From the NCBI GenBank assembly GCA_021432655.1, contig MU271184.1, positions 186,001-250,000 of the forward strand: a DNA stretch of 64,000 bases, read 5' to 3'. The notes under the pieces are model-generated. The model saw nothing but the letters and a program-made list of their open reading frames with translations. It was not told where the DNA came from and did not search any database. Both the position numbers and the translations under genes were made by a program. The stretch is from Atractiella rhizophila (lineage: Eukaryota). Each line of letters begins with the position of its first letter. Position 1 is the stretch's first letter. Positions 26,432-63,702 of the stretch are shown in pieces.

Positions 26432-27025
26432 AATCAGATGAGCCGCACGGGTTCTATCACCAGCAACCGGATGAAAAACATAAACCTCTGCGGATCAGGA
26501 AAATGCTGATGTGCTTCCTCCTTTTGTCCGTAAAAGCTGTTTATTTGTCGAAGGAAGGAAATCGCTCTTTGGGGAGAGTGAATAAACACGAACAAACACA
26601 GAAATGTAAGGTACTGCTGGCTGGTTGGCGGTTTCACGTGTTGAATGAACTGGGATCATCTCAAGGTTCCCAGGTCTCAAGTGGAGGTGGACGGATCGTC
26701 CGGAGCCTATAGATTTAGGTTCTGGACAGAGTATTGTCTCCCGTGTCACAGTGTATGTGACTGGTTTCATCGGGGTGGGCATTGATCAGATGGTGATCAG
26801 TACGTGTCTCAAAGTTCATCTACTACTAGTAAATGTGTAATATTACTATCCACGGCAATCAGCATCAATAATGTGGAGTGATAACCAACTTCACGACAGG
26901 TGTTCTAAGCGTGAAAATAAACCCGCCTCAGCAAGATCGTTAACGTGATAAAATGTATGTTCAACGGGGTCTGGCTGAACGTAGCAGCTTTGCACAATGT
27001 TGTCCGTGAGACCAAAGCTGAACCG

Positions 27026-27189
27026 TGTTGAACCTGAGGTTCATCAGAAAGACAGGAAGAGGAAAAAGATGAACCTCAGGTAATGCGAACGAGACTAAAC
27101 TACAGTAGCGGACGGAACAGTCAGACGCGGAATGCGTAAGATGAACGGGAAACCAAAAACGAAAAGAGAAAAACAACCAAGCTTCAACA
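27026..27189 (-). repeat. 3' LTR of Copia-1 (164 bp)
   Basis: Identical to the 5' LTR except for 4 extra bases (GAAA). Preceded on the minus strand by the polypurine tract GGAGTGGGAG (27190-27199). Confidence 0.97.
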
Positions 27190-27385
27190 CTCCCACTCCG
27201 TACGCTACAACAAATTGGGAGAAGGTGCAATGGAGAATAGGAATGTGGGATGGGTTGTGATGTAAGGGTGTGTGTGTTCAAATGGATGTGAATATGAAGA
27301 AAAAAGAAATGCTCTGTTACACAACTATTGTGAAGACTGAACGAAGAAGTGAGAGCGCACACGGATGAAAAGAACAGAGTGTCAA

Positions 27386-30300
27386 TTAAGAGAAAATGAT
27401 GCGAGTTCCAATATCGCGTACTCCCATAGCATGGATGCATTGGTGAAAGGAGTCCTTGGCAAGTGGTTTTGTGAGAGCGTCTGCAATCTGATGTCGCGTT
27501 GGCACATACCGTAGAATGATATTGCCTTTCTGGACGTTGTCTCTAACCATGTGGTAGCGAAGCAGAAATGGCTTGCTTTGTGCATGGTGGACTCCGTTGG
27601 TTGAGATCTTGATCGCCGCTTGATTGTCTTCGAAGACTGTCGTGCGGGGTATGTCTTCTCCTGGCGAGACGTTGTGAATGCTTTCAAGTGCTCCTAATTC
27701 TTCAAAAAAACCTCTTGTCCACAGCAGATCTGCAGTTGCTTCCGCAGCTGCACCATATTCTGCCTCTCCGGAAGACAGTGCCACGACGGTTTGAGGCTTC
27801 GATTTGAAAGTGATGGGTGCTCTGCTGAGCATGATGAGCCGTCCTTCTTGAGATTTGAGGGATGGAAGAAGGGAGGCAAAGGAGGCGTCAGAGTACGCAT
27901 GAAGGGGTCTGCGATCGTTCCCATTAAACAGCAGTCCTTTGTTTGAGGTTGCGCTGAGGTAGCGGAAAATTTGCTTGACTGCTTTGTAGTGTTCTGGGCC
28001 TGGGTTGGCTGCGAAACGCTGTACGTTGGAGAGAGCGAAGGTGATGTCCGGACGTGTGCAGATTGATAGCCAGTTCAAACATCCTGTGGCTTCTAGAAAT
28101 GACCATGGAGGTTTGTTGGCGAGGTCATCCTCAGACCAGACGCCATCAAATGGTTTAAGCTTTACCTTGGGATTCGCAGGGACACTCGCATAACTGTCCG
28201 TGAATCCAAATTTCTCCAAGATTGACAACGTATACAATCTTTGAGTCAGACTGATCGTGCGTCTTTCCCAGTCGCGTTTGACCTCCATTCCCAGGAACTT
28301 TCCAACTTCTCCGAGTGTTCGCATTGCGAATGATGTCCCTAGCTCTCTTTGAAGCGTTTTGACAACAACACGGTCTTTGCCTAGCAGCAGAGTGTCGTCA
28401 ACATAGACGACAAGGATGTATAGCCTGCCATGTACTGTTTTTGTGAAGACGCAGGAGTCAGACCATAAAGGGGTCCAACCCTTCGTTTGCAAGTCTGCCT
28501 TGAGAGTATCAAACCACAAACGGGCTGCTTCCAGTAGTCCATAGAGACCCTTCTTTAGCAGATAAACTTTTCCTTCAGTACCAGGCTTCTCTAGGCCAGG
28601 GGGTTGACGGATGTAGATTCGAGTTTTTGACATGTCGATGGGGGAGTTGAGGAAGGCAGTTTCATAGTCTGCTTGGTAGATGGATAGATCCTCACGAGCA
28701 GCGAGAGCAATGACGCCGCGGATGGTTTCGCTGTTGCTTACGAGAGCGAAGGTTGGGTCTCCAGTAGGGGTTTGAAGATCTCCTCTGACACAGATGCGTG
28801 CTTTGAGGCTTTCTAATTTTCCATTAATGTCGTATTTGTGTCGGAACGCCCACATGAGAGGTGTAGCTGTCTCTCCTTCGGGGAGATCTATGGGTTCGCC
28901 CTCAATCGTCTTGTTTTTGAACTGTTTCTCCCACTCGTTCTGACATGGCTGGAGCCATTCTGATCCTTCGCTACTTTTCAGTGCTTCTTTGAAGCTCCGT
29001 GGTTCTCGGAGAATCCAACCGTGGTCCTGAAGTGCGCGCGTGGAGAACATGTAGTCGATGGAGTCGCTGGGACGAGGAGGAGAGGATCCTTGGGAGCGTC
29101 GCTGACGTATAGCTTCTCGTATGTCCTTTTCGGAAAGTTCATCCACTTGGATAGCCATTGGAGCGCTGATGTTAGGTTCGTGTATTTCAGGCGAAATAAA
29201 GGCACTTTCCCGTTGCACGGGTCTTACGTCCACCACTACGTGCTCGGCCCCTATGCAACTGCCCGTTTTTAATCTCTCAGGAGCATCATGGCTCCCTTCA
29301 GTGCGCATACTGGTGGAGGCGAACCGTAGGATGTCTTTGTATTTTGGATCGACGACGTAGTCGTTGTTGAAGATGCGCTTATTGGGGATTCGTCTCCGTC
29401 CAGAACGTGGAGGGGGCGGAGGACCTTCGATTGAAGGGGAGGGGGCGAGAGGAGGAGGGATACCGTCACTTGCAGGCGTGAGTGTTAGCTCCATCGCTGT
29501 GTCAGGGTAATGGTGCTGATGCAGAGGAATATCACTTTCCTGAAAAGCGGGGCTTACGTCCACCCTCTCGTGTGAAGCGCCCTCGCAACTGCCCGTACCC
29601 AAATTATCTGTCTCTGCAACATTTCTTTCGCTTTCACCGAATGATGCTGGAATGGAGGGAGTTGGAGCTATTGTTTCGATGGAGTTAGGAGCAGGGGGTG
29701 CGACACGTATTCGTGAGTCGGGAAGGCCAGCGTCCAGAGGTGCGTTTTGAGGAAACTCGTCGATGTTATCTTCTGACCAGAAGGTATAGTCGTCTAGTCG
29801 GTCTGACCCAGTCCTTCCTTCAAAATAATTTTCGGCAAAGATAACATGGCGAGCACGAATGAGATGTCGCTTGACAGGATCCCAACAACGATGCGATTTG
29901 AACATTACGTCGGGTCCCAGATAAATACAGCGTACTGCTTTGTCCTCCCACTTTTTCCTGCGTTCCTCAGGAATCAATGCCCATGCCATGCATCCAAATG
30001 TTCGCAGATAGCCTACTGAGGGTTGGAGTCCTTCGAGAGTCGTCAGAGGTACTCTACCTTTTAGTGAAGTGTGAGGTGTGCGATTGTACACATGTCCGGC
30101 AAAGTAGAGAGCCTCAGCCCAGAACATTAGAGGGAGCTTTGCGTGATAAAGCATAGATTTGGCAAGGTTACGAAGGGTGCGGTGGATGCGTTCAGCGATT
30201 CCGTTCTCTTGATGACAGTAAGGTGTTGTTGCTTTCCATTCGACATTATTCGACTCGAACCATGACCTTAACAAGTGATTTACGAACTCTCCTCCACCAT

Positions 30301-31090
30301 CTACTTTCCATCTCTTCACGTTTCTTTGTGTTTTGGCCTGAAGGAAAGATCTGAAGCGTTCGAAGGAGAGCAGGACTGTGGCTTTTGACTTGTCAGGGAT
30401 GAATTGCTGATGAACAACTCTTGAACCGACATCAACGTGCACGATGGAGTACCAGGCACCACCCAAGGAAGAAACTTGCACAGGGCCAGTGAGATCAGAT
30501 ACTACAGACTCGCCTGGCAGTGTGGGCGGCAGCTCAGCGCTTTGTTTTGATGGAAACGATCCCCGATGCATTTTTCCCATAACACACGGCTCACAGACGA
30601 CCTCAAGTTCCTTCTCTTTCGTTTCTTTCACCTCCAAACCACCCACTAGCGACTTCGAAATAAGATCTTTGATCTTCTCAATCCCGACATGCGCCAGCCT
30701 GTTGTGCCAAGTCTTTAGATCGACGGCCTTCGAAACGGTATCGATGTGAGCACTCGCCTTTCTTGCTTCTCCCTTCAGTAGGAATAAACCCCCTTTCTCC
30801 TCTGCTACCCCTACTAGCCGCCCTTTCTGATTAAAGATAGAGCAGTTTCCATTCTCGAAGACTAACTTGAGGCGCTCGTGTGCCGGTAAGGAGAGGCTGA
30901 TAAGTTTCGAAACGCTGATTAGGGGACTCGTGAGGGAGGGTAGGTGGAGGACATTGTGCAGGGGTATGTCAGAGAGGGGCGTCCCATTTTCGCTGGAGGT
31001 GACGTAGACTGCGGACCCTTTCGTTGCAATTGAGATTTGTCTTCCATCCGCAACTTCAATGGATCCGTTATGGTCTTGACGGTTGGAGAG
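27386..31090 (-). CDS. pol: Copia-1 pol (protease C-part, GAG-pre-integrase, integrase, RT, RNase H)
   Basis: Within ORF 27386..31303: WHNRLAH..CEPC, SDLTGP, VDGGGEF, ENGIAER, LKARICVRG, YVDD, YSDAS, EAEY, ADALTK. Confidence 0.95.
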   Translation of the reverse strand, partial: LSNRQDHNGSIEVADGRQISIATKGSAVYVTSSENGTPLSDIPLHNVLHLPSLTSPLISVSKLISLSLPAHERLKLVFENGNCSIFNQKGRLVGVAEEKGGLFLLKGEARKASAHIDTVSKAVDLKTWHNRLAHVGIEKIKDLISKSLVGGLEVKETKEKELEVVCEPCVMGKMHRGSFPSKQSAELPPTLPGESVVSDLTGPVQVSSLGGAWYSIVHVDVGSRVVHQQFIPDKSKATVLLSFERFRSFLQAKTQRNVKRWKVDGGGEFVNHLLRSWFESNNVEWKATTPYCHQENGIAERIHRTLRNLAKSMLYHAKLPLMFWAEALYFAGHVYNRTPHTSLKGRVPLTTLEGLQPSVGYLRTFGCMAWALIPEERRKKWEDKAVRCIYLGPDVMFKSHRCWDPVKRHLIRARHVIFAENYFEGRTGSDRLDDYTFWSEDNIDEFPQNAPLDAGLPDSRIRVAPPAPNSIETIAPTPSIPASFGESERNVAETDNLGTGSCEGASHERVDVSPAFQESDIPLHQHHYPDTAMELTLTPASDGIPPPLAPSPSIEGPPPPPRSGRRRIPNKRIFNNDYVVDPKYKDILRFASTSMRTEGSHDAPERLKTGSCIGAEHVVVDVRPVQRESAFISPEIHEPNISAPMAIQVDELSEKDIREAIRQRRSQGSSPPRPSDSIDYMFSTRALQDHGWILREPRSFKEALKSSEGSEWLQPCQNEWEKQFKNKTIEGEPIDLPEGETATPLMWAFRHKYDINGKLESLKARICVRGDLQTPTGDPTFALVSNSETIRGVIALAAREDLSIYQADYETAFLNSPIDMSKTRIYIRQPPGLEKPGTEGKVYLLKKGLYGLLEAARLWFDTLKADLQTKGWTPLWSDSCVFTKTVHGRLYILVVYVDDTLLLGKDRVVVKTLQRELGTSFAMRTLGEVGKFLGMEVKRDWERRTISLTQRLYTLSILEKFGFTDSYASVPANPKVKLKPFDGVWSEDDLANKPPWSFLEATGCLNWLSICTRPDITFALSNVQRFAANPGPEHYKAVKQIFRYLSATSNKGLLFNGNDRRPLHAYSDASFASLLPSLKSQEGRLIMLSRAPITFKSKPQTVVALSSGEAEYGAAAEATADLLWTRGFFEELGALESIHNVSPGEDIPRTTVFEDNQAAIKISTNGVHHAQSKPFLLRYHMVRDNVQKGNIILRYVPTRHQIADALTKPLAKDSFHQCIHAMGVRDIGTRIIFS

Positions 31091-32438
31091 GGAAGACATG
31101 AGAGGTACATCCAGAGTCAATGATGGCAATAGCGGTCTTGTCAAAAGAGAGATTTGCCTTACTGGCTTCGACTTCTTCAACGAGCCGGACTTGGTCTTGA
31201 ATTGCAAAATGAGAGGACGATTGCACATTGGAAGCAAAGTCGGAGCTGAAGTCAGATGTATTGAGGACCAGGTTGACTTGGTCAAGAGTGGAAGAGGTAT
31301 CAATGGATGGTGATGTCAGTTCTTTGGCGCTATCCTTTCTCCTTGGATTGACAGCTCCGTCTTTGAATCGATATCCAGGAGGAGCAAGAGTTCGATTTCC
31401 TTCAAGTTCCCAACAGCGATCAGAGGTGTGAGAGCGAAGACTGCAGTGAGGACACGGGGGGAAACAGTTGATGGTGGAAGAAGGGCGATTCGTCCCACTC
31501 CTCCTCGACTTGTCTCGATCTCCCGTACTCCCACTTTTTCCACTCCCTCTTGCTGGCGTTACCGACCTAGTAATCAGCGCTTGTTCCTGCGCCTTCTGCA
31601 CCTCACTGAGGCCCTCCTCCAACATTATCGTGTTGATAGTGTTGGAGATCCACTCGGGAGTGAAATCGATAAGGGTGGCCTGGGCAGATTTCATTGCCTG
31701 TAAAGCTGAGAAGTACGGCTTCATTTTGTCGCGGAGGGAGTCTGACAGGGTGGCTTGGAGGTGAGCCGAGAAGATGAGTGACTTCCAGGTTGCGGTCGTG
31801 AACTTATCGTCCCCAACGTATTTGACGAAATCAGTAAGATTCTTCTCCAGGACCGCCATGTGTTCAGTCCAGTGTTGGGGAGTACTTCCATTGAAATGAG
31901 TTCGTGCAAATGTACTCCAAGCAGTGACAGCATAAAGGTGGTTGGCAGCGTCATACTCCTTTTTCAGCCAGTCCCACGCTTCTTTCGCTTTCTCCTTAAG
32001 GTCGTTCGCCTTGATCCTTGCTTTCATTCCATCAGAGAGGGATTCGTAGAGGAGCGTGGAGGCTTGGAGGTTTTTGTTCTTCCACGCAATGGAATGTTGG
32101 TCGAAGATATACAAAGCGGCACCGTAACGAGATTCGAGAGGTTCCTTCTCCTCTCCAGATATGACTAGCCAAAGTTGTTGGCTACGCAACGTTTCATATG
32201 CGTCTTCCCTCCATGCTCGATAGTTGGGACCTTCTAGCACGGTGGGGATTCGGCGAGTTAAGAAAGAGTTTGATGGAGGAGTAGGTAGGGCATCCATCGT
32301 GATGAACGGGATGTCTGCTGGTTCTGGAGGAGGGCTCCGATTGAGTGGAGGTGCTGTGGATGGTTCAGGAGTTGCGATGCCGTGATCTGATGGATCCTGG
32401 GGTAGAGATGGTTCGTCTGATCTTGGTGATCGAGACAT
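31068..32438 (-). CDS. gag: Copia-1 gag plus protease active site
   Basis: 456-aa ORF with LEGPNYRAW, zinc knuckle CPHCSLRSHTSDRC and protease motif IIDSGCTSH just before the stop. Confidence 0.92.
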   Translation of the reverse strand: MSRSPRSDEPSLPQDPSDHGIATPEPSTAPPLNRSPPPEPADIPFITMDALPTPPSNSFLTRRIPTVLEGPNYRAWREDAYETLRSQQLWLVISGEEKEPLESRYGAALYIFDQHSIAWKNKNLQASTLLYESLSDGMKARIKANDLKEKAKEAWDWLKKEYDAANHLYAVTAWSTFARTHFNGSTPQHWTEHMAVLEKNLTDFVKYVGDDKFTTATWKSLIFSAHLQATLSDSLRDKMKPYFSALQAMKSAQATLIDFTPEWISNTINTIMLEEGLSEVQKAQEQALITRSVTPARGSGKSGSTGDRDKSRRSGTNRPSSTINCFPPCPHCSLRSHTSDRCWELEGNRTLAPPGYRFKDGAVNPRRKDSAKELTSPSIDTSSTLDQVNLVLNTSDFSSDFASNVQSSSHFAIQDQVRLVEEVEASKANLSFDKTAIAIIDSGCTSHVFPLQPSRP

Positions 32439-32580
32439 GAAACCTCGCTCAAAGGCGTCCGAGTTGAGTTGGTTTGTTGATTAGCACGTGTCGCGTTTGT
32501 TTGAGAGTGTTTACGACTATTGATGGAAAGGGAGGAAGGCTTGGGGAAAAAGGCGGACGCTTATTCGGTAGGGATCATTT

Positions 32581-32592
32581 GGGCTCATAACC
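32581..32592 (-). promoter_or_regulatory. Primer binding site GGTTATGAGCCC (internal tRNAi-Met fragment type)
   Basis: Directly follows the 5' LTR. Same type as the Ty5 and Drosophila copia PBS, which pair with the anticodon-arm region of initiator tRNA. Confidence 0.85.
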
Positions 32593-32752
32593 TGTTGAAC
32601 CTGAGGTTCATCAGAAAGACAGGAAGAGGAAAAAGATGAACCTCAGGTAATGCGAACGAGACTAAACTACAGTAGCGGACGGAACAGTCAGACGCGGAAT
32701 GCGTAAGATGAACGGCCAAAAACGAAAAGAGAAAAACAACCAAGCTTCAACA
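32593..32752 (-). repeat. 5' LTR of Copia-1 (160 bp)
   Basis: TG...CA ends, adjacent PBS, and TSD AACCG. Confidence 0.97.
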
Positions 32753-35433
32753 AACCGATCTCCGCCATGTACAAACGGCATGGTCAAAGCTCCCAAAGGC
32801 GGAAGGTGTTTGACATGATGCTTAGATTTGTCTGCCAACGAGGTGATTAGAGTGTGCTGAATGAGTAGAAGAAAACTTTATAAGATGACAGCAAGGGGGG
32901 AAGAAGTATGTAAAGGGCAAGAAGTGAAGCACGAATAGTTTTGGGAAAAGAAAAGGGACTGCCGCAGGGAACGGTATAAAGTGGTCAAAATGGTTGGGCT
33001 ACTTACCTTATGTTGGCTCGAACGGAGTAGAGTTTTAGCCCACTCCTGCTCGAGCCATATTAGTATGGGCTTCCTCATGCTTTTTCTTTTTGAATTTCAG
33101 TATTCTCTCTGTGGAGGGTGTGTGGAATGAGAATCGTTTCGTGGCTCAGATGAATTTCCAGAGAAGGGGGAGGGCTTCGGGTGCAGAAAGGACCGATGCA
33201 TTGCTCGTTAGGCTAATACCCGATTTCGCTAGTTGGCTCTTGAGATGGTTACCATCCAAGTGTACTCGCGGAAGACAATGATCTGAAACTCCTTCCCTTC
33301 AACGCAACAAGAAAATAATCGAAAAATCTGTGCAAATGAAATTGTGCCATCCTTATTCTGCAGAATAGCGTTGTTGTATCGCGGGGCCTTCTGCCAATTA
33401 GGGTGGAATCGAAGGTAATCTTCGTATATCCTTTGATCGACAAACGAAGTGAATGGAGAGCGGAAGAGGGTGAAGTCTTGAATCTGAATACCCGAAGTTA
33501 GCCAGCAAAAGCATGAGGATGATGTAAGGAAGAAAGCCCTAGAATTGTCAATCTAAGGCAATCGCTCCTGGCGCACCCGTGTTGGAGCTGAAGGATCTAG
33601 AGTTGGAGTTCGAATTCAGTGGACAACTTGTCAAAGTAAGTCTGAACATGAAAGGTCCTTGACTCGCCACAGAAACCCGAGCTTTCAATGGGGCCTTGCC
33701 TTTTGTGTGGAATGGCTCGCTCGTTCTAGCAACTGCTCCCGTGAGCAAGTTTTGCTGTTATGATGCGGCGGCCAATGGCTTGAAGTTGCATCATTTCGAA
33801 CGCACGTTGAGCCATCTAACACAGGATCGTGCCACAGGTCAGCATTCTGCAAAATGCTAAACATGAATGTTTGAATGGCTGCTTACTGATAGCTCCGTCT
33901 CCCCCGCTATGTTGCTATGAAGCCACTTGAGCAATGATGTGCTCTTTCACTGGACGGTGGGATTGTTCGCCATGGGCTGTCATTTGATGATCCAAGGTTC
34001 CACCCTCAGCGATGAGGTCAACAAAGTGCTGGGGTAGATGTCCTTTTGAGAACTTTGTAGACATTCCGAAATGTTCGCTCAGAGTCTGTCATGTCAGCTA
34101 AACAAAAAGTATGGTGTGAGAAGAAGGACAAGACAAACCGTCAAAGCCCTTTCAACAGCTGTGAGCTTCTCTTGTCGAAGCACAAGGAATCTGTCTTCGT
34201 CTTGAACGTGCGTGCATCTTTACAATCACCTCGAAAGCTATCAGGTCTTGTAGGGCAGGAACAGCTTCTTGCTCAAGCTCAGCTGGAAGAATCCCAATCA
34301 TGCAAACGATTAAAGACCGTAGTAAAACCTTGATATCCATACCAGCACAGTAGAGAGATTATGTGCCTTCATTGCATCTTGAATCTCCATGCAGGTAAAA
34401 CTTTCTAAGTTTGTTAGGCCACTTTTAGCGGACTGGCCAAACATTTCAGCTTTCAAGTTATGACAAAGCCTCAAGCAGGCAACCACACACCTTCTCAGGC
34501 CGAATGGAAGACCGGCTCGTTAGTTCCTTTGCCGCTGCGACTGTCCCGCTTTTTGTCTCTTCATATCGAAAAAGGTCACATCGAACCTGTTTCTGACTGC
34601 GTTAAAAACTGGTGTGAGAGGTTGTGAAGCTCTGCTTCGGGAGCAAGGCAGATTGCACAGCGAAATTCTGACCCAATGCCGAGCAGCAATAGGAGGGTGT
34701 ATCTGGAAACCGGTAAGTAGATGTTTTATCAAAGTAAAGCAATTCTCACAACTCAGCCATATCAGCCTGCAGCATGAATATACGCGGGAATATCAACTTG
34801 TTGAAGCAATGGCCGACTTGCACCTTGAACCCTAGGTGTTCATATCGACGAATGCCCTTCAATACAATACTAATGACTTTGTGGTATACCGAACACTTGT
34901 ACAGCCGGAACTTTTTGTCCTTCTTTTGCTTATCCGTGCCAACAATCTAAATATTTCCTGGTCAGTACCTCAGAGGAGCAAGGATAACTTGAATCTTGCT
35001 TACTTCAGGTTGAAATCCAATGAGTTGGCACCCTCATTTACTGTCACTACTCCTTTCTCGAAGAGGAACATTTGCAAGCCACATATACATGGGATGCACA
35101 GTTTTCTGTCCAAACTTGACGGCACTTGTTCCATCTGTATAAAAGATGATTGCGCCGATACACCCATTGGATTGAGAAGACAATCCTGGAGTACTAGTAA
35201 GTATATACTTGATGTGAATGCGAGAGAATATGTGAACCTGATATCTCCACCAGCGCCTAGTAGTCCACAGCTCATCATAAGTTCTCACATTGCGACATGG
35301 AACGTCCTCAGTCTGTTTGAACTTCTTGACTGGGTAGAACTGCATCGACTCTCGTATAGTATCGTCGCAGATCACCTCTTTCATGATCTCGATAGGATCC
35401 ATATATAGACATGATGCTTGATAGTCTTGCTCT

Positions 35434-40229: not shown

Positions 40230-40418
40230 TGTCGCGGCCGCCGCCTTCTATTTCTCGTGGTCCAAGATGAGATCCAGGGTCTCACTGGATGCGTTTGATT
40301 TGGTTTCCTGCTCAGGAAAAGGGGTTGGAGCCGGCGATGGGGGCAGAGATATTAACTTGTCAACGTTCATTCAACAGCGTTTTTGAAAATTTTTTTCCCC
40401 AACCTGCTCTCGCTACCA

Positions 40419-40592: not shown

Positions 40593-40988
40593 AACCCTAA
40601 GCAAAGGCGGAGGAAAGGACTGGTGCAGTTGTGCAAGTCCTTTCCTCCTTCTTCCATCTGCCCATCCGCCACGCTTTCCTTCCTCATATTCTCATCCACC
40701 TAGCTTTCTCCGACATCCTCTATTCTCTGATCTGTGAGTGTGCTTCAGCAGCACGGCGAAAAGGTGTGCCTCTCTTGTTATGTCTCATTCCTTTCCTCTT
40801 TGCATGAATGTTGTACTAACAATTATCTCCGAGTATTTTCTGTTTCCGCTTGCTTCTCACCTTCCGTCCACCAACTTCCATGGCCACTGCTCTCTTGTGC
40901 CCCGCCCCTCCTCATCGCATCCACTCTGTCCCACCCTTCACGCCTTCTCCCAGCAGAGTACCAGCTCATTGGACCTTATTCAATCGTC

Positions 40989-43900
40989 ATGTCTGCGCTT
41001 TCCTCCAACATCTTCGATCCCCCTGTCGTGAAGGCACTGTGCAAACAGGTGCTAGAGACCCACACTCGACAGAAGGCTGGGAATAAGAAGGGAAACTGGC
41101 TTGTGGACTGGGAAACAATGTGGACAATTCAATCGGTCAATGATACAGTGGAGAAATGGAAGAAAAATAAAAGTATTGTGGGAGAAGAGGGCAACTATTC
41201 TTTGCTGCCCAAGTGTTAGAATATAGGAAAATTGTTAACCGAGTCCTTGACAGAGAGGTATGCTATTCTGTACTTATTTTAAAGTCTCTGGGTTACAAGT
41301 AAAATGTAGATTAACCAAGGAACCATTCCCACTGGCTTTCCCCTCTATGGACCGCTTTTCATTCCTCCCACTGCCGATTATGACCATTTACGGCGAAGAA
41401 ACGTTTCTGACTGTCCGGAAAATTTCTCGTTGAACCTGTTCTTGTCCTAACTCCTGAATACTTTCCTGGCTATAATATGGAGAAATGTCCGGTCAAAGGC
41501 TGCATGGCGAAAGTTGAAAAGCAGGGGCTGGCGCCAACTGGTTATCGCTCAGTTTATGGGCTATCATGCAATTTGAAAGCAATTGGTTGTTATCTCAAAT
41601 TTCAGACTCATGGCAAATGGAGCACAACCTCTCCTAACTTTTGGAGGAACTTTCAGCCATATGAATTAGGTATCGGCGTATTTTTTAAAATGATTTAATA
41701 AACACATGACTAAGTTGCTTGCATAGATGGAATACCTTACTTCCGGGAGTCATCGGCTATCACTCAAGATCTGTTCAACTTTATTACAGAATTACGGCCA
41801 AAGACTGATGTTGGCAAACTGGGAGAAGCGATTCAGCGTGCGTGACTACTGTCTTTGCTTAAAAAAAACCAACTTACACACTCTTTGTGTTTTGCAGAGC
41901 TACATTCGGAGCATGTCCAGCAGATTAAACGGGTTTGGCAACAGTACGCTATTGAAGAACAGATTCGTCACAAATGGCCGTCCGGCTCGTTCAAGCCAAC
42001 CTTGAAGCAGTTCCCAGGTGTTCTATCCAGAGCTGCCGATCCAACAATAAAAGCCGATGCGATTAAGTCCTCTCCATCATCTGGCCTCATCAAGACAATC
42101 TACGAACACTGGATAGAGTGTGAGCCCAGAAAGCAACATGTATTTGAAGACCCTTACCGGTATGTATTTTGGCTTACCTTGGCCCTCTATCCTAATAAAC
42201 CACCAGGTCTTTCGTTAGGCCTTGATGCAACCCTCAAGGTCGCCAAGAAGGCAAACATTTACACTACCATGAAGGAGACTGGTGGTCATCAAAAAGTACA
42301 AGTTACAAATATTTTTGGTGGAGGATTGTTGACGATGGTAAATGAGGACCGAGAACTTGTGGGATACACAAGTTATAAAGTTGCTGTCATCTGTAAATTC
42401 AAGGCCTAATGATAACAATCCAGGAATTTCTTGTTGGAAACTCACCGCTCGAGATGGGTCCACCACTTCAAGAGTTTGCGCAACGTGCACGGCTCCTTGG
42501 AGTCGACTTTGAAGGTAGTGGGCAGGCATGTGTTGACCTCTGCTGTCAACATAGGAACAGTATCCTTCTCTAGGTGCCCGAACTCTGGATTGGTCAGGAT
42601 CGAGCTCATCTTGAAATGCATGTCTTTGAAACAATTCCTCATATCAATCCGGCACGAGCAGATTTCGTTGTGGCATTTCGAGACGCAATCTTGAAGAAGA
42701 AGGCAGACTTGCGCGGTGGGGTTTCTGAGTATTATTCAGTTGAAGAAAGCTTGGAGCGGCTTACGAAAGTTGAAGACAAGTTCAAGAAGAATCCTGATTT
42801 TTGGATCAAGTGCTGTGCCACATTCGAGCTTCAAAAAGGTCACATTGCGAAGGGATGCCTTATTCCAAAGCATCAGCAACTCCCGTTTATGACATCAAAT
42901 AATGAAAACTGGCATGTTGCAGCTGGCGAGCCATTTCGTGGATCGGCTTCTTCTCTTACAACTGTTCTGAGTGTCCTTCCCGATATCTTCTTACGCAAAA
43001 ACCTCCTTGTCAAAATTAAGAACCGCTCTCAGCCAGCTGACTCACCATCATGAGCATTTCGGAAGAAGGTTATTGAGGCTGGTACCCACCACATCTTTCT
43101 TGTGGATTGGAATCTTCGCCTGGAAGACATCTTATACTCTTCAAGCCAGCCTAAACTGCTGGACGTCTTTTCGAAGCACGAGTTTGGATTGGTCAAGCGT
43201 GAAAAGCAGTATGTTTTCTGTATATGCTACTGGGAGTAGTACATTTGTTGCTATTCCATGAGTTTAGATTTACAGGAGTTGACCTAGATCGCTATAAAGC
43301 AAAGCGAAAGGAGCTCCTCCAAACTCTCAAACCAGATGATATCGAACACCCCGAAGTGATTGTTATGGCTGTTATGAATGGAACGGTTGTCATGAATGGT
43401 GAGCTTCCTGTGGACTCTGATGTTGAAATGGAGGTGTTTCCGAAGGCTGTAAGTCTTCTCTTTCCCAGTCTTCTCAACATGAGAATATATTCATATTGAC
43501 ATGTTATAGAAACCTGAGAACACTCCTTTACAACATTCTGCGATCAGTTCATCTTGCTTGCCAGAAAAGCGCATGGCGACCCAATTGGATAGTGAGGATG
43601 ATGCCACTACTACGCTCACCATCTCCTCCAAACGCCCTCATCTAAATCGAGAACTTTTGGAGCCAGATATCAAGCCACCTCCGCTACCTTCTTTTTGGAA
43701 CTTTATAAAATCGAACCAGTCCCCATTTTCCACAAGTATGGATGTGGAAGCACAACCACCACCAGTTCCTCTGCCTACGAATGTCTCCCAATCTCAAACC
43801 TCATAGACCTTTACTTCAGCAACTGGCACTTCGTTTGCAGATTATCAGGAGAAGAATAAAATTCAAATGTACTCTGATGCCTTCTGGAAGCTTGCAGCCT

Positions 43901-44635
43901 GCCGACTCCAGTTCAAAGCTACTTCTTCAATGACAGAGAAGCAGCTGAAGTTGTTTGCTGAGAACTTTAATAACCCCTAGCTTATCTTGAGCCCTGTATA
44001 TTACCATATAGAAAAGGGTGTTCCGACCAACAAAATCATTGGTGACGGTTTGGTAGTCAAAAATAGTTTATTTACAATCGAGAAGGATGTTGCTAGTCAC
44101 ATTCAGAGAGTAGCCAGAGGAGACTGTGAGTTTGAATGCTTTTATTGACAAGAAAGGAATTTACTAATAGTGTTGAGTAGCCATCAAACCATTCTGGAAA
44201 CTACAAACGACACTCCCTCCACCAGTGAAAGTGACATACATGAAGCCAACAAAGAAGGGCAACCTTGGAGCTGTAAAGACTTGTGGTTGATGCAAGAAGC
44301 AAAAGGATGGATATGGTGAGAAGAATACAAACAACCACAAGCGCGATGTCTGTGACGACAACTTTATGCATTGGTCCAAAGTTCCGTACCCACTGCCCAA
44401 GACCAACTTACGCAATGTCCCACTCTGCAAGAATATGTTGGGGAAGTGGAGCACAGACGAGAATGCGGTAAAGAAGTTTTTCACGGATATCAAGGATGGG
44501 AAAGTGCCAGATGTTGATCAATCGGTGGAGATGGTCAACATGCGAGTTTTTATGGCAATGACATGGGTAGAGGAAAAGATGGACTGGGTTTTGACAAAAG
44601 AAAGGTTGCATATTGAAGTGGGGAAGAGAAAGTAG
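40989..44635 (+). pseudogene. Multi-exon putative DDE transposase of an unassigned family (DUF6729-like N-terminus)
   Basis: Exons give GPLFIPP, EKCPVKGC..GYRSVYGL..IGCYLK, LGLDATLKVAKKA, IGQDRAHL (DxxH), HIAKGCL, TSNNENWH and a C-terminal CxxC..H..C. GT-AG introns; some stops and frameshifts. Partly duplicated at 53-56 kb. Confidence 0.6.
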
Positions 44636-44829
44636 TGCTGCACTTAGTGAGTAGTCAGATGCAAATGGATATCTTTTGTGATTTTCAGTCTGGGACAAAT
44701 AATGTACTAGCCTCCACTTTTGAGATTTTTATAAAGATCACGTCAACTATTCTAAAGCAAAGGCAAATTTTGAGCTTTTATTTGATCAATTACAGCTGCA
44801 GTTGCGAGAGGACTGAATGCACTGTTGCG

Positions 44830-53255: not shown

Positions 53256-53592
53256 TGCAGAGTAACAGCTTATTGGAACGTAATCAATCATCGTGTCTGC
53301 ACTCTCCTCCAACATCTTCAATCCCTCTGTTGTAAAGGCACTGTGCAAACAGGTGCTAGAGACCTATACTTGGAAGAAGGCTGGGAATAAGAAGGGAAAC
53401 TGGCTTGTGGACTGGGAAACAATGTGGACAAGTCAATCGGTCAATGATACAGTGGAGAAATGGAAGAAATAAAGTATACGGGAGAAGAGGGGCAACTATT
53501 CTTTGCTGCCCAAGTTTTAGAATATAGAAAATTGTTAACCGAGCCTTGACAGAGGGGTATGCTATTCTGTACTGATTTTAAAGTCTCCGGGT
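53256..53592 (+). repeat. Diverged copy of ~40953-41294 (transposase 5' part)
   Basis: Shared runs such as GAAGGCTGGGAATAAGAAGGGAAACTGGCTTGTGGACTGGGAAACAATGTGGACAA. Confidence 0.92.
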
Positions 53593-53899
53593 TTTATGGT
53601 GAGACTTAAGCAACCTGGGGTGACGGTCTCAAAGAAGCTTTGGCTAGGGGCTTCAAAGTTCAAGTAGCTGTTGCTCCAGTGAGGACTTCTGGGATGACAT
53701 CACAAGAGTACAGAGAGGAGAAGCAACGGTCATCTAAATGCCAGCTCATGACTGAGGAGGAAAGCTGGGGCGTTCAATAAGTGCTACTTCGCCATTGAGT
53801 ATTTGCACATGTTTTGCCCTTTTGCTTTTCACTTTTCTCTGTCTGAACAAACCGTAAACAGCTTCCAAGTATGCCCAAAGACCATCAATTCTATCCGGA

Positions 53900-55130
53900 A
53901 ATTAGCTAGGTTGTCTGAACCATGTAGAAACAACTTGCGCTTTAATATCAGCCTCATCCAAGGTAAAGTTGACAGCTGTGGCTAGCTCACACATGCTTTC
54001 AACCTTTGTCGGCCCAAAGATTGGAGCTGTAACTCCAGGCTTGTACAACAACTACGTGATTGCAATTTACCTTTCCATCAGCCAAAATTCCATCTGGGTC
54101 GATGACGCCATACCCACGCCATGGACACCCTGTTCTTCCTTGTCAACTGTTCTACCGTGCTCACAATCTTCTTATCACTTTCCCCAGTAGCATCTTTCAC
54201 AATAAGGTTGAGGAACTTATCCGACTTTCCTCTTTCCATGGTTTTGTTTTGAGCCCAAGGTCGCATGAGGAGACCTCGACCTACGTCCCAGAGCGCCATG
54301 TGCATCGTTTCATCTCACAGAGGGATGGAGGTGAGGCTGTGATCAACATACCCAGTGGACTTCAAGGAGTATAGCCAACTCCGAACTCTTGAGAGTGGGT
54401 ATCATCTCCCTTTCTTCCTCAAGATAGTTAGCTGAATAATGGTTCTGCACGCTGATGAAAGGGGTAAGGTTTTTCAATTAGCATAGTTCTGTATGGCATG
54501 GAACTCATAGGCATGATAGGAAGACTGATGGATTCATACTCAGACATGTAGATCGTGAAAAGCGAGCTGGGTGAAAGTCATAAAATGCACCATCCCAATG
54601 TATCACAACCATCCTTTCTGGACCACATCATGCAAAACTTTGCATTATTTCTTTAATTGGCTTTTCATAGTCAAACCTATGGCCTTTAACACAAAAAGTC
54701 TTTAGTTCTTCCAAGATGGTGTCACGGATAGATGGACATTGCAGCAAGTCGATGTATTCCAGCTTCAAAAGCTTCAAGGATGCTTGCACACTGGCAAAAT
54801 ATGCTTTCGGCTCGAACCATGTTGATTATACCCAAAAATTGGTTCATGAAATAGAGAAAGCAAGAGAACGAAAGGATGTGTACTTGACATGGCCCGAATC
54901 GTCGGGGTTTCCAGGACAACTTGCCATAATTCTTCCCCAGCTCGTCATGAACTGTAGAGTATAACTGTTCCTCAATCAAAAATGGTTTGGAAAACGGAAG
55001 AGTGAGAAGAACCTTCGTCATGACCACGATGGTCTCCCTCGGTATCTTCAACTGCTCAATCATGTTCCCGGAATAACTTCCGAGAGACCAGAAGAATAGA
55101 CTGATCCCATGACCGTTGAGCTGCATCCCC
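53900..55130 (-). pseudogene. Aldo-keto reductase (aryl-alcohol dehydrogenase-like) pseudogene
   Basis: LKIPRETIVVMTKV, NQHGSSRKHI/FASVQASLKLLKLEYIDLLQC, LHDVVQKGWL*YIGM, AYEFHAIQNYA, LTPFISVQNHYS..EEREMIPTLK, GLLMRPW, KPGVTAPIFGPTK. Introns retained; stops and frameshifts present. Confidence 0.88.
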
Positions 55131-55169
55131 GAATTAAAAATCAAACAAACCATTGGTGGTACTAGAAAG

Positions 55170-56196
55170 TGAAGTCACCACTATCTTCTATTTGGAACTT
55201 CATAAAATGGAACCAGTCTCCATCTTCTACAAATATTGATGTGGAAGTACAACCACCGCCAGTTCCTCTGCCCACATATGTCTCCCAATCTCGTACGTCA
55301 CATACCTTTACTTCAGCAACAGGCACTTCGTTTGCAGGTTATCAGGAGAAGAGTATAATTCAAATGTACTCTGATGCCTTCTGGAAGTTTGCAACCTGCT
55401 AACTCCAGTTCAAAGCTACTTCTTCAATGACAGAGAAGCAGCTGAAGTTGTTTGCTGAGAACTTTAATAACCCCTAGCTTATCTTGAGCCCTGCATATTA
55501 CCATATAGAAAAGGGTGTTCTGAACAACAAAATCATTCGTGATGGTTTGGTGCTCAAAAACAGTTTATTGGCAATCGAGAAGTAGATTGCTAGTCACATT
55601 CCCAGAGTAGCCAGAGGAGACTGTGAGTTTGAATGCTTTCATTGACAAGAAAAGGAATTTACTAACAATGTGTTGAGCAGCAATCAAACCATTCTGGAAA
55701 CTACAAACGACACTCCCTCTGCGAGTGAAAGTGACATACACAAAGCCAACAAAGAAGGGCAAACTTGGAGCTGTAAAGACTTGTGGTTGATGCAAGAAGC
55801 AAAAGGATGGCTATGGTGAGAAGAATACAAACAATTACAAGCGGGACCTCTGTGACGACAACTTTCCGCATTGGTCCAAGGTTCTGTACCCACTGCCCAA
55901 GACCAACTTACACAATGTCCCACTCTGCATGAATATGTTGGGGAAGTGGAGCATAGACGAGATTGTGGTAAAGAAGTTTTTCACGTATATCAAGGATGGC
56001 AAAGTGCCAGATGTCGATCGACCAGTAGAGATATCAACATGCGAGTTTTTTTGGCAATGACATGGGTAGAGGAAAAGATGGACTGGGTTTTGACAAAACA
56101 AAGGTTGCATACTGAAGTGGGGAAGAGAAAGTAGTGCTGCACTTAGTGAGTAGTCAGATACAAATGGCTATCTTTTGTGATTTCAGTCTGGGACAT
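55170..56196 (+). repeat. Diverged copy of ~43672-44697 (transposase 3' part)
   Basis: About 1 kb collinear match, e.g. CTTCTTCAATGACAGAGAAGCAGCTGAAGTTGTTTGCTGAGAACTTTAATAACCCCTAG in both. Both end TTCAGTCTGGGACA. Confidence 0.95.
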
Positions 56197-59026: not shown

Positions 59027-59488
59027 TCCCTCCATACCACCAGCCACTGGATCTACATTTAGATTAGGTTATAATATATCTATATAAAACTGCTCAAGTT
59101 GTGTAACTTGAGTAGGAGTTGAACCTACAGGAAGGATATGTAATGTTAATTCAAGATTGTTATACCCATATTTTTTAAAATATCGATATACACGACGTTT
59201 TCCACTACCAATAATAGATGGCATGAAGTAGGATGACACTCGATAGTAGAGATTAGTTGCACCTCCTACATATATAGCACCTGTAACTCTATCAGTAAAA
59301 ACATATACACCAGACATACCTTTACCATGTTGAATAATAACCTTACGATTATAATATGGTTTATCAATAATAATAGTATTATGTGGATGAGGTGGTTGAT
59401 CACCATAAATGTTATTACCTATATAAGGGTAAACATTTTGGCTTTTACAATTGAGATATTTAGAGATTTCTTTAAATAACATTAAGTT
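59027..59488 (-). pseudogene. Intron-encoded GIY-YIG endonuclease fragment, in frame with the cox1 exon
   Basis: [29 protein letters not shown]...[14 protein letters not shown]; one stop at 59069. Confidence 0.88.
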
Positions 59489-59630
59489 AACCATAAAAAA
59501 AAATATTAAAATAGCATGAGCTGTAATAATTGCATTAAATAATTGATGGTTTCCTATTAAAATTTGTGAACCTGGTGATGATAATTCTATTCTAATTAAA
59601 ATAGAAAATGCTAAACCCAATACCCCGAAG
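59489..59630 (-). pseudogene. cox1: Mitochondrial cytochrome c oxidase subunit 1 exon fragment
   Basis: [46 protein letters not shown]. Exon ends in T, as expected before a group I intron. Confidence 0.93.
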
Positions 59631-62600
59631 AAAGACGCCAAAAATCGAATAAGCGCGACCAAGGTCTCGTTTGAAGAAAAGTCTGGGTGGAAAACCTGAC
59701 GGCTCGTAAGCAGCCTCCGTCCAACATGATGATCAACTGTAGAGCCCATTTTGGCGAGTGAAGAAGTGTAGAAGCCCCATGGACAAAAGTAAGATCCAAA
59801 GTTTGCGATCGGCAATTAAAGTTGGAGAAGGAACAAATGCTCTCGTTGCAAGAGGTGCGAAGAAAATGAAAAGGATTCATGAACTTCTACACCCAAAATA
59901 TCCAGTTCCTATGACTTTTGCACCACGCCTATAAGTCTAAGCGACATTCTGTTTGCCCCATGGTTTCAACTAGTTTCAATGGACAAGTTCATTGTCATCA
60001 CTAGTCAGTGCCTTCTGCAGCTTTGTTTCATGAATTGGAAGGACCCGGTACCTCTAATTAAAGCACAAAGCTGACAATAGAGCAATAAGTGTACACATCA
60101 AACTGAATGGAAGCCAAGGCACACTTTGAGAATAGTACATCTGAGAACATGTACCTCACCCACCAAATACTTATCCTCCACCCTTCTACCATTGTCATGA
60201 ACTGTTCTAAACTTCTGCATGACATACTCTGAAAAGTTTGTTGTCTGCTTCAGCTTCTTCCCATCTCCATCAAGCTTATACTTGTCAGGACGGACGTAAA
60301 GATGTGTATGAACGTGAGGGTCAGGTCGCGTAACGCTCTTAGAAGAATAGATGCACGGAGAGGTCACACTTGTGAAAATGCTGCAAATTCATGAGACATC
60401 TCTGTTCCTCTTTATGAAGAGAGAAGACGTACCGAGATTCAGGGAAGCAATGAGTACGGCCTTCAAGTCATCGAATTACTTCTATCTCTTGCAATCGAAT
60501 AGCGGACTTACTGGAACAGCACATTGGATGGAGCGTTTGATCAGTGTGAAGATGAGGTTGCGAGTTCTGGAATCGTGTAAGCTTAGCGATCGTTTGGAGA
60601 TATCAATAAGTAATCCTACTGAGGCAAAATAGCCTTTTTTGTTTGTGTGAGGAGAAAGTAAGCCGTGCACGCGGCGATGAGGATGTCGCCTGCTAATACA
60701 CCGCTAGATTCAAGCGTTTGAGCCTACCTGTTCGATTTGTGAAAGGGACGGTATCGCACCTGTAGTGATCAGCGAACCAGCGTGCGAGAGTCTGCGGCCC
60801 TTACCCTTAGACACTGCACTGCCTAAAGGTTTCACTCACCGCAATGATGATTGAAATATACGAGAAAATGAGGACCGCGACGATGATCGCTATAACCCAC
60901 CACTTCCTACAGATTATGTATAATGGATATAAGAAGTAAGCTTGACTGTTTTACCATTCACAGTTGTCAGTCCTCCTCCTTGTTTGTTCGTAGCCCAGGC
61001 GTACACATAGAGACCGCAAGAGGCGTCCTTGCCGTGTATTAGCTGTCAGTAAAAAGAACGATGGATGGGAGACGTACTGTTAAAGTAAAGGCACTCTGCC
61101 ACCACTCTGTGTACGATAGGAAAATGGGGCCTTGCAGATCCTGTAAGCAGTTTTGGGACAATCGTTCTATCGTTGAAAGGACTCACCGTAAAAAAAGTCA
61201 CAAATTGGATCCAGCAGGTTACACTGACGAAAAGTGTCAAGCGGAGGAAGCTGGGAAGCTTTGAAAATGCTCACAAAGAATGAATGCTCTCCAGGAGCTG
61301 AGTGATGAGTAGTCCTGCGACAACGAGTTTCAGCCAACGACGATCGTCCTTGTAGTGCTGCTAATCTTAGCAGGTTCCATGAACTGTGTGCTAACCAGTG
61401 TGAAGAAGAATCGGCTTACAAGTGTGAAATTGTGCAAAGAAGGATGCCATAAAGAATGAACTCGAGTGAAAGACCTATAAACCAAGGGCCTTCCAACGAG
61501 GAGCATCAAGTCATGTTCGCCTGATCTCCCAGGCGGAGAGAAACTCACCAAGCAGTCGCCTCGACTGCTGTGAGATGTAATGGTAATGGTCAACCCGCTC
61601 ACATGCGGCAATACCTTCCTATTCTGGAAGCGGCTCCTGCCTAACTTGGAAGTGACATTGACCACTGTATACCTCACCACTCCCCCGTCTCTCTACACCT
61701 CTCCTGTCGGCTCCAAGCGCGTACAATCGATCGGAAGCAGAAGGGAAGATAACCGCATGGTATCTTAGCCTTATCCAGAAGCTGGAAGTGTCAGGATTTT
61801 GGCGCGTTGAGCGTCATTCATTGCCACCTGTTCTGTGGCTGTTTTTCTTGAACCTTCTGGACTTCCATGCTTACCAATGTTTGCCACCTTCTGTAAAAGT
61901 GTAAAAGCACTAGATTCTTTATCGTAATACTATGAACTTGTAATTTCATCAGGAAGGCAAGATCCGTCGATTCCCTGGCCGTTTGATTCCCTTCAGCTTC
62001 CTCTTCGTTCCATGCTTTCAGACTATTCTATATTTCTATCTACTTATGTATTACGGGTTTTCCCGCGATGTTGTTTGATCTTTTATCCGATTCATTGGCC
62101 TATAAAAGAGGCCTCACTTGTTAATATAAATTCATCTTATTCCTCATCATCTTACTTCGCACTCACAGCAGAAAGCGCAGTAAGAATCGAGGTAAGTTCC
62201 ACGGGCCGTAGAAGCGCCCCTGTAAGATCCATCGTCTTTATTCTGAGACCAAATAGCTTGGTAAGCGGCCCTACACTTCATAGCAAAAGCTGGTTCCTGT
62301 CTCTCCATTTCGTTCAAGCTCTCATTTATTGATTGAGCCTCTTAATTCTCGCTCTAGTCGAGCTAAAGGAACTCGCTTTTGCAGTAGAGTCTCACAACTG
62401 CTCGTACTCCTCATGCGTCAATGACAGCGTCATAAGAGGTGAATGGAAAGGCATCTTGCTCAACAGCACGAAATCAGCAGCAATGGAGAAGAGACATCCA
62501 AAGACAACGGGGCAGGAGAGATTGTGATTAGAAAGATCGTTATGATTATAAAGCTCGTTGCTATTTCTTCTGGTCACCACTTGGATCACTGAGGGACCCC

Positions 62601-62838
62601 AAGCGGGGGGTGCGGTAGCAAGTCGGGCAAGTATTCAAGTATAAAATTAGTTAGAATATATTATTATTATTAGTTTATTCTTAATGGTGCGTGGAGCCTC
62701 TCCATTTGGCGGTTGTTTTGAATGGCCATCGTTCCCACATCTTCGCGGGCGTTAATTTTGGTGTGGTTGTTCCGTCCAGCGGAGAGTACCCGAGGCGTGC
62801 CCACTTTCAACAGACCCCACATTTCGCGAAGTCGTCTC

Positions 62839-63072
62839 TGTTGAACCTGAGGTTCATCAGAAAGACAGGAAGAGGAAAAGATGAGTATTGCATGTGAGCG
62901 TGTGATAGGATGCTTACCTGAGGTTCATCAGAAAGACAGGAAGAGGAAAAGATGAACCTCAGGTAATGCGAACGAGACTAAACTACAGTAGCGGACGGAA
63001 CAGTCAGACGCGGAATGCGTAAGATGAACGGGAAACCAAAAACGAAAAGAGAAAAACAACCAAGCTTCAACA
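62839..63072 (-). mobile_element. Solo LTR of the Copia-1 family, long (234 bp) form
   Basis: Same sequence as the Copia-1 LTRs plus 71 bp. 5-bp TSD GTCTC at 62834-62838 and 63073-63077. Confidence 0.97.
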
Positions 63073-63198
63073 GTCTCCATGCCTTCCCGCTTCCTAAAAC
63101 GAATGTGGTAGCAAGACAGCGAATCTTGATTATTCTTAGGGGAACGAAGAGGACTCCGTCCAGCTCCATTCTTTGTTCTGGAATTCCGCTCTTCCTAT

Positions 63199-63702
63199 TT
63201 GGTCAAGGTACCCGCCCCTCCAGTCTCTTCCGGCAAACACCACCGCTCCTTAGCACGACACTTATCATCCGAACAGACCTTCGAAATGCTAAAGGAAATG
63301 CCACGAGCACAGGCATCGATCTTCGTCCAACTGCGATCTGGTCACATCCCTAACAACAACTACCTGCATCGAATAGGGATTGCGGAAGAACCGAACTGCG
63401 ACTCCTGCGGCATGAGGGATATGGTCACCCACCTCTTTTTTGAATGTGAGGAGCATGAGGAAGAAAGAAGAAAACTTAGAAGGAGACTCGCGAAAAAGGA
63501 TGTTCGTTTCAGATCCCTGGGCGACCTGCTGAGCGAACCGGAGGCGACGCAGGCGGTATGGGAATTTATTAGACGGAGCGGGAAATTCAAGTTATGGATC
63601 ACAAGGGCGCAGAGGGTTTTGGATAGAAGAAAGGCAAAAAGGAAACAAACGGCGGAGGCAAGAGGAGAAAAGGATGACAGCAGGGAGGATTGGGAAGATT
63701 AA
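63199..63702 (+). mobile_element. 5'-truncated LINE (Tad1-like) ORF2 C-terminus; 3' UTR probably runs towards the window end
   Basis: QASIFVQLRSGHIPNNNYLHRIG..PNCDSCGMRDMVTHLFFEC..HEEER..LGDLL..VWEFIRRSGKF. Confidence 0.88.

Follow-up and report, generated by a model that had tools for sequence, protein, structure and literature searches.

A 71-bp intron-like segment bounded by 40-bp direct repeats in a solo LTR of a Ty1/copia-type retrotransposon

In the stretch of 64,000 nucleotides analysed here (hereafter the window), a solo LTR carries a 71-bp block that is missing from both LTRs of an intact Ty1/copia element of the same stretch, and two identical 40-bp repeats flank the missing segment, of which the short form keeps exactly one. 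The block has the look of a fungal intron and, as stated in the first-pass annotation, splicing, a template switch by the reverse transcriptase (RT) or a simple deletion between the repeats give the identical product, i.e. a short LTR equal to the long one minus 71 nt. The observation itself is confirmed upon closer analysis and, among the possible mechanisms, the ordinary reading as a deletion between direct repeats is ahead. Since the different mechanisms converge on the same product, they are weighed here by their prior plausibility.

The long LTR and the intact element

The solo LTR is organised as follows, all features being read on the minus strand:

63073..63077, minus strand: target-site duplication GAGAC of the solo LTR, upstream copy (direct reading)
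62839..63072, minus strand: solo LTR, long form, 234 bp, with TGTTG...CAACA termini (direct reading, BLAST and three-way alignment)
62912..62969, minus strand: long-form U5 hairpin of 16 bp, a bulged A and 2 bp, with a 21-nt loop (predicted fold)
62916..62955, minus strand: upstream copy of the 40-bp direct repeat (BLAST, 40/40 identity)
62885..62915, minus strand: 31-bp spacer between the repeat copies, starting with AAGC
62845..62884, minus strand: downstream copy of the 40-bp direct repeat (BLAST)
62847..62917, minus strand: 71-nt block in the GT...AG register (direct reading and three-way alignment)
62834..62838, minus strand: target-site duplication GAGAC of the solo LTR, downstream copy (direct reading)

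As GAGAC is duplicated on both sides, the solo LTR is a true remnant of an integrated element. The upstream repeat copy comprises the last 5 nt of the 5' arm of a hairpin, its pyrimidine-rich loop and its 3' arm ending with CAGGT, and the downstream copy leads into TCAACA, the final 6 bp of the LTR, the block ending 6 bp from the LTR 3' end. The block consists of one perfect 40-bp repeat unit and the 31-bp spacer and can be drawn in 41 registers, all of which give the identical product; in the GT...AG register, read from 62917 to 62847, it starts with GTAAGC and ends with CTGATGAACCTCAG. It very probably sits in U5, the alternative being R.

In a BLAST comparison within the window, the solo LTR matched both LTRs of the intact element over 158 nt, the 3' LTR at 27032-27189 (99.4%, 1 gap) and the 5' LTR at 32599-32752 (96.8%, 2 gaps). 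The three-way alignment of these LTRs contains zero substitutions, the differences being the 71-nt block, a homopolymer of T4 vs. T5 and the loss of 4 nt from the 5' LTR alone; in other words, the solo LTR corresponds to the 164-bp LTR of the intact element plus the 71-bp block minus one T in the T-run. What the first-pass annotation had described is thereby borne out in full regarding the sequence, namely GTAAGC, the pyrimidine tract, CTGAT and CAG, all of which can be read, the absence of the 71 nt from both LTRs of the full-length element, the recovery of the LTR at 27026-27189 upon their removal bar one homopolymer base (T4 vs. T5 on the minus strand), and the direct repeat at 62845-62884 and 62916-62955, for which the 40/40 identity lies far above chance.

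With up to 3 mismatches allowed, the window contains the 31-nt spacer only once (0 expected) and, when the spacer is aligned locally with the element and with the window, the top scores are 18-24, which is within the shuffle null (established against the element alone; mean 18.6, maximum 24). That neither the element nor the window offers a source for the spacer speaks against its having been filled in locally and recently. TCATC also recurs within the LTR at spacings of 72 and 71 nt. An older tandem structure of the LTR was considered and rejected, as the alignment of unit 1 with unit 2 is not significant (p = 0.087, 2000 shuffles) nor is that of the spacer with the upstream LTR (p = 0.93), and Tandem Repeats Finder reported no repeat on the LTR. 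Besides, the last 15 nt of the LTR (TGAACCTCAGGTTCA), seen at 27026-27189, 32593-32752 and 62839-63072, form a near-palindrome that overlaps with the terminal inverted repeat of 7 bp (TGTTGAA/TTCAACA) and that is predicted to fold, in the long form, into a small stem around CAG.

The full-length element, which lies on the same strand as the solo LTR, comprises the following features:

27026..32752, minus strand: full-length Ty1/copia element, 5.7 kb, with short LTRs and intact gag and pol
32753..32757, minus strand: target-site duplication CGGTT of the full element, upstream copy (direct reading)
32593..32752, minus strand: 5' LTR, short form, 160 bp, with a private 4-bp deletion
32581..32592, minus strand: primer binding site GGTTATGAGCCC, directly after the 5' LTR
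31068..32438, minus strand: gag, 456 aa, PF14223 Retrotran_gag_2 (E 5.5e-08; Pfam)
27386..31228, minus strand: pol, 1280 aa from the first ATG (Pfam)
27190..27199, minus strand: polypurine tract GGAGTGGGAG, directly upstream of the 3' LTR (direct reading)
27026..27189, minus strand: 3' LTR, short form, 164 bp
27021..27025, minus strand: target-site duplication CGGTT of the full element, downstream copy (direct reading)

With TG...CA LTR termini, a short target-site duplication, a copia-type gag, an integrase preceding the RT, a primer binding site and a polypurine tract, the element is, as judged from its sequence, an intact Ty1/copia (Pseudoviridae) LTR retrotransposon. The pol frame is +1 relative to gag, with an overlap of 161 nt, and the Pfam domains follow one another in the order Pol_BBD, gag_pre-integrs (147-220), rve (237-337), SH3_retrovirus (400-469) and RVT_2 (780-1015), the rve match scoring 29.0, that is under the cut-off of 32.6. 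Gag is 61-81% identical to its nearest named proteins, three hypothetical proteins of the root endophyte Atractiella rhizophila, which points to that fungus or one of its relatives as the host; the element is a member of an undescribed copia-type family, the kind itself being already known. In Ty5 and copia, the primer site pairs with the anticodon stem-loop of initiator tRNA-Met, and three G-C pairs are present in the anticodon stem of the initiator tRNA. Here, GGTTATGAGCCC is the sole copy in the window at up to 1 mismatch and its complement, GGG-CTCATAA-CC, reads as an anticodon stem-loop with the anticodon CAT. The window (1-64000) has 0 tRNA genes and, from the shape of its primer site, the element would be primed by a half-tRNA, the manner by which hemiviruses are defined (PMC8515867).

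The window is transposon-rich and gene-poor, with 46% G+C, and several of its other features deserve mention. A second copia-type gag-pol frame (36315-40247, minus strand; 1311 aa) ends inside the RT domain; considered as a source of related LTRs, it was rejected with 26% identity to the pol under study and no LTR pair around it, and it represents a different family, probably truncated. Between 40953-44684 and 53257-56183, several collinear repeat blocks are 91-97% identical and 11.5-12.3 kb apart, and they correspond either to a segmental duplication or to a large element's long LTRs; no Pfam match was obtained for the frames scanned therein. At 15368-20010, a perfect inverted repeat has two arms of 2321 nt, 100% complementary and separated by 1 nt, in which three frames gave no Pfam match; either a chimera of long-read assembly or a genuine giant palindrome could be behind it. 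The frame at 59072-59815 (minus strand) has weak Pfam matches to cytochrome oxidase subunit I (E 1.8e-05, below cut-off) and GIY-YIG (E 8.4e-06), and its appearance is that of a fragment of a mitochondrial cox1 intron together with the homing endonuclease, either as a nuclear insertion or as a misassembly. Beside the solo LTR, the frame at 63130-63699 (plus strand) shows a weak zf-RVT match (E 2.7e-04, below cut-off) and the flanks of the solo LTR are high-copy in other sequencing runs; the solo LTR probably sits in the remnant of a non-LTR retrotransposon.

The predicted U5 hairpin and the intron-like signals

The LTR carries a perfect 14-bp hairpin, with arms ACCTGAGGTTCATC and GATGAACCTCAGGT and a pyrimidine-rich loop, the 40-bp repeat corresponding to its loop and 3' arm. 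Allowing up to 2 mismatches, 10 copies of the arm motif are present in the window (0.56 expected), all within the three LTRs. In the short form, the predicted hairpin ends 6 nt before the primer site (-26.7 kcal/mol, z -4.0). In the long form, the AAGC at the start of the spacer is predicted to pair with GC-A-TT upstream of the 5' arm, which results in a longer stem with a minimum free energy of -36.4 kcal/mol (z -5.81), none of 200 shuffles being equally stable. In this predicted fold, which is that of the naked RNA only, all 6 nt of GUAAGC are paired and the candidate 3' splice site lies within a second small stem.

By its sequence, the block displays GT-AG ends, a donor GTAAGC matching GTAAGT at 5 of 6 positions, a CTGAT whose branch A is located 10 nt before the block's 3' end, a pyrimidine tract and a CAG acceptor, for a length of 71 nt. 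For comparison, median intron lengths of 55 and 95 nt as well as ctgay-type branch motifs have been given for basidiomycetes (PMC2483917), and the block agrees with a fungal intron in its ends, donor, branch, acceptor and length, with basidiomycetes as the reference for length and branch motif. As for the intron consensus of the host itself, none of the 30 open frames searched against Pfam (17 + 13) identified a host nuclear gene; the 3 with matches are the second copia-type pol, the zf-RVT frame and the COX1/GIY-YIG frame.

How much of this resemblance is independent is another matter. The pyrimidine tract, CTGAT, CAG and the next GT all lie inside the 40-bp repeat and are carried by every short LTR too, in which they cannot belong to an intron, and signals common to the short LTRs bring no independent evidence for an intron. 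The AAGC following GT is the only signal outside the repeat; at the window base composition, R-N-G-Y would be matched by chance with a probability of about 0.058, and in the predicted fold stem extension accounts for AAGC no less well than a donor function. The GT-AG signals are present, but the word intron in the first-pass annotation reaches further than the evidence, the tract, CTGAT and CAG being shared with the short LTRs and AAGC extending the stem as well. In addition, weak folding is preferred around the donors of fungal introns (PMC4574748) and the donor here is wholly paired in the predicted stem. A donor buried in a stem of 16 bp + 2 bp weakens the intron reading without killing it.

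Regarding specificity, a loose intron pattern (GTRNGY, 45-120 nt, with CTRAY 6-40 nt before YAG) is found in the 64-kb window as 64 and 47 donor-acceptor pairs on the two strands, so that a given start and length passes it with a frequency of about 1e-5, which becomes 5e-4 when all 41 registers are allowed, a low figure that is largely owed to the sequence of the hairpin itself. On the sense strand of the element, 0 intron-like segments were counted vs. a shuffle mean of 3.0, a depletion that is not significant as 12% of 300 shuffles also gave 0.

LTR copies in other sequencing runs and the routes between long and short forms

Outside the window, the comparison covered four public runs (X1, X2, X4 and X5), all as assembled contigs, which break at the 40-nt repeat; among the 21 runs listed, just 1 has at least half of the sampled words, and X5 gave 2 records only, both off the LTR. 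A 71-nt joint is reported in none of them, nor would one be expected from contigs that break at this repeat. Record 22 of X4 covers the LTR from its 5' end, includes the upstream repeat and reaches 7 nt inside the spacer, with at most 1 mismatch and next to a different flank. In record 21 of the same run, the aligned part corresponds to the spacer's last 10 nt, the downstream repeat and TCAACA, and differs at 8 of 57 letters (about 14%); the 29 letters left unaligned give in register CCTCAGGT and then 21 nt, 9 of them identical to the window, i.e. the first 21 nt of the spacer differ at 12 positions, the 31-nt spacing is the same and a donor-like GTAGGT stands in register. Record 6 of X1 has part of this diverged interior in common with the X4 variant and GC in place of GT, a comparison of diverged variants that rests on loose ends of 29-30 letters in single contigs. 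Conversely, record 13 of X2 and record 7 of X1 stop 5 unaligned letters past the upstream repeat, as expected of short forms, and their gapless alignment implies T4; with T4 in the short-type contigs of these two other runs and T5 in the lineage of the window's full element, the T5 appears to be a private slip of that element.

For the first-pass annotation, a long form unique to this locus, as a local duplication, would have counted against its reading. The contigs from other runs (X4 records 22 and 21) contradict this uniqueness, to the advantage of that reading, since they are suggestive of long-type LTR ends at other loci, and a one-off local duplication seems unlikely as the origin of the long form. 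The diverged variant keeps the 31-nt spacing, which suggests an arrangement of some age and not one of recent, accidental origin. From these contigs, the long form is probably the older state. The searches with shorter pieces were negative: the 14-nt motif of the diverged variant is not in the window (1 match at 2 mismatches, 32 of 100 shuffles doing as well), a 22-nt piece of the repeat had 0 matches in metagenome_contigs, genome_contigs and viral_contigs, and the hairpin-arm pattern with a free loop had 0 matches in metagenome_contigs.

That the short LTR was made from the long one by a precise repeat-mediated deletion, without the spliceosome, is the explanation put forward here, and we consider it about an even call. 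Copy-choice by the reverse transcriptase is named as the most likely route, though held only tentatively, and a slip or exchange at the DNA level as a decidedly unlikely one. The solo LTR would have kept the longer, probably older, allele. In the copy-choice route, minus-strand synthesis from the primer site would copy the downstream repeat within the first 50 nt, and the nascent DNA would re-anneal to the identical upstream repeat, skipping 71 nt; both new LTRs would take their U5 from this first DNA and the short form would be found at both ends, as at 27026-32752. Alternatively, a slip or exchange in the 5' LTR followed by one round of retrotransposition would lead to the same outcome. The splice-like signals would then be by-products of the hairpin, AG|GT coming from the self-complementary ACCT(C/G)AGGT arms and AAGC from the pairing with GC-A-TT. 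This scheme has precedents, as U5 is copied first by the reverse transcriptase and passed to both LTRs (PMC8515867), and as direct repeats in retroviruses are unstable, their deletion being described as 'highly precise' and its rate as climbing with repeat length, with the loss of a 110-bp repeat at 41% per cycle, while LTR enhancer repeats of 50-75 bp differ in copy number and template switching is promoted by hairpin bases, pause sites and homopolymer runs (PMC3187697). In the present LTR, a homopolymer run and a stable hairpin adjoin the 40-bp repeat. In the full element, the short form is found in both LTRs, which fits an event that preceded integration, an outcome that is also predicted by splicing or by DNA slippage plus one replication cycle. 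Against the deletion, the block matches a fungal intron in sequence and length, the diverged X4 long variant retains the donor-like GTAGGT in register, and the long architecture seems to have survived about 14% of LTR divergence, which would be unexpected if a 40-nt repeat were lost often per cycle.

These last points are those on which a spliceosomal origin would build. The 71 nt would then be a true intron of the 5' leader, maybe a weak one ('proto'), long-LTR transcripts would be partly spliced, and the spliced RNA, once reverse-transcribed, would yield progeny with a short U5 in both LTRs, whereas the hairpin at the donor could hold splicing down and leave unspliced RNA for packaging. In the major splice donor of HIV-1 and other retroviruses, such tuning by a hairpin is known. 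All things considered, a real intron in the leader is possible though unlikely, and the same grade applies to its fuller version, i.e. a structure-throttled intron wholly in U5, born from the partial duplication of an AGGT-ending hairpin. In its favour, GT-AG ends, GTAAGC, CTGAT, the pyrimidine tract and 71 nt are typical features of fungal introns, AAGC after GT would arise by chance in about 6% of cases from the window base composition, and the X4 variant shows GTAGGT at the corresponding place. An element with long LTRs has integrated, as the solo LTR with its target duplication testifies, so unspliced RNA was competent for replication as the splicing model needs, and the 40-nt repeat seems to have outlived considerable divergence, in line with a long form that could be under selection. 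Besides, introns are documented to arise by way of AGGT-containing duplications (PMC3265369, PMC4974935), weakly spliced 'protointrons' are known in yeast (PMC6726248), and in Cryptococcus the transcripts of transposons carry poorly spliced introns, which feed RNAi (PMC5851062). Yet all the 3' signals lie within the repeat that short LTRs also have, AAGC as the sole independent signal is equally explained by the stem extension, the whole donor is inside the predicted stem of 16 bp + 2 bp and the 3' splice site in the second small stem, and the diverged variant of X1 record 6 has GC, not GT. Moreover, LTR retrotransposons are described as mostly intron-free, the exceptions Ogre and EVADE having introns in the internal region (PMC12786077), and literature searches, the wider one being judged by title among the matches listed, brought up no natural intron wholly inside an LTR.

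The opposite direction, with an ancestral short form and a derived long one, would imply that a jump back of the RT or an error-prone break repair duplicated the 40 nt, that 31 nt of foreign filler were inserted and that the variant then spread as a subfamily. AGGTTCA, which directly precedes the upstream repeat and also closes the downstream one, could serve as microhomology for the jump, and the only intact element of the window is of the short form; however, the filler has no source in the element or the window, a variant that differs in its repeat region (8/57) and in its spacer (12 of the first 21) shares the long architecture and its 31-nt spacing, and the predicted stem is more complete in the long form, all of which makes this scenario improbable. 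As for an assembly error at the repeat, the 40-bp repeat exceeds common assembly words and at least one structure of the window is suspicious, namely the perfect palindrome with 2321-nt arms, but misassembly does not create 31 nt of new sequence, X4 record 22, a contig of an independent run, joins the upstream repeat to the spacer at a different locus, and X1 record 5 (189 nt, 0 differences) contains the exact flank-LTR junction of this locus, X1 being possibly the source of the assembly; such an artefact is barely credible. The rest of the probability goes to an explanation outside those considered.

Significance and relation to known systems

Should the deletion between direct repeats hold and the block be merely a repeat-bounded length variant, the case would be an ordinary example of direct-repeat turnover in retroelement ends, and it adds an undescribed copia-type family with a strong predicted U5 hairpin. 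It also carries a word of caution: a palindromic ACCT(C/G)AGGT hairpin with a pyrimidine loop makes a convincing false intron and, because such a hairpin mimics an intron, repeat-bounded GT-AG indels in retroelements need RNA evidence. Should the block be spliced instead, an LTR could hold an intron that retrotransposition erases in one step, the first natural intron confined to an LTR. Unspliced RNA would propagate the long form, packaged spliced RNA would be written back as a short-LTR element and the genome would keep a running record of the splicing of a retroelement leader, which would provide a natural system to measure splicing vs. packaging of retroelement RNA and a possible handle for a spliceosome-coupled silencing as in Cryptococcus.

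Among known systems, the stem recalls the stem-loops of retroviral leaders, with which it shares the position of a stable stem a few nt upstream of the primer site, and it differs from those leader examples in being predicted to be far stronger and in belonging to an unrelated family. The comparison bears in particular on the U5-IR loop (PMC3601003). In hemivirus-type Pseudoviridae such as copia and Ty5, priming occurs from a short internal segment of the initiator tRNA-Met (PMC8515867); the present element resembles them by the CAT anticodon stem-loop shape of its primer-site complement, the PR-IN-RT order of pol and the 5-bp target duplication, and differs by a gag merely 61-81% identical to the nearest named proteins.

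If the 71 nt were spliced, short-LTR progeny would be the natural counterpart of the 1985 experiment in which an intron put in the yeast Ty was gone from the transposed copies (PMC12786077), with the difference that the Ty intron was artificial and internal, whereas the candidate here is inside an LTR. Similarly, splicing yields subgenomic RNA in Ogre from Medicago and in EVADE, a Ty1/copia element from Arabidopsis (PMC12786077); the likeness lies in a Ty1/copia-class element with a GT-AG segment on the sense strand, but their introns are internal and alter the proteins made, whereas the block here is non-coding, located in the LTR and changes no frame. Regarding introns born from AGGT duplications (PMC3265369, PMC4974935), the repeat likewise ends with CAGGT and a cut from the first GT to the second AG removes one unit; here, however, the duplication is not purely tandem, 31 nt of unrelated spacer separate the copies and the intron is putative.

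The closest counterpart to the proposed deletion is that of direct repeats in retroviruses (PMC3187697). While retroviral cases come with measured rates, the event here is deduced from sequences, and it concerns a 40-nt repeat in the U5 beside the primer site of a fungal Ty1/copia element rather than a U3 enhancer. In both cases, identical repeats bracket the loss and one of them is kept, the loss is precise, both LTRs inherit it, and a hairpin and a homopolymer adjoin the repeat.
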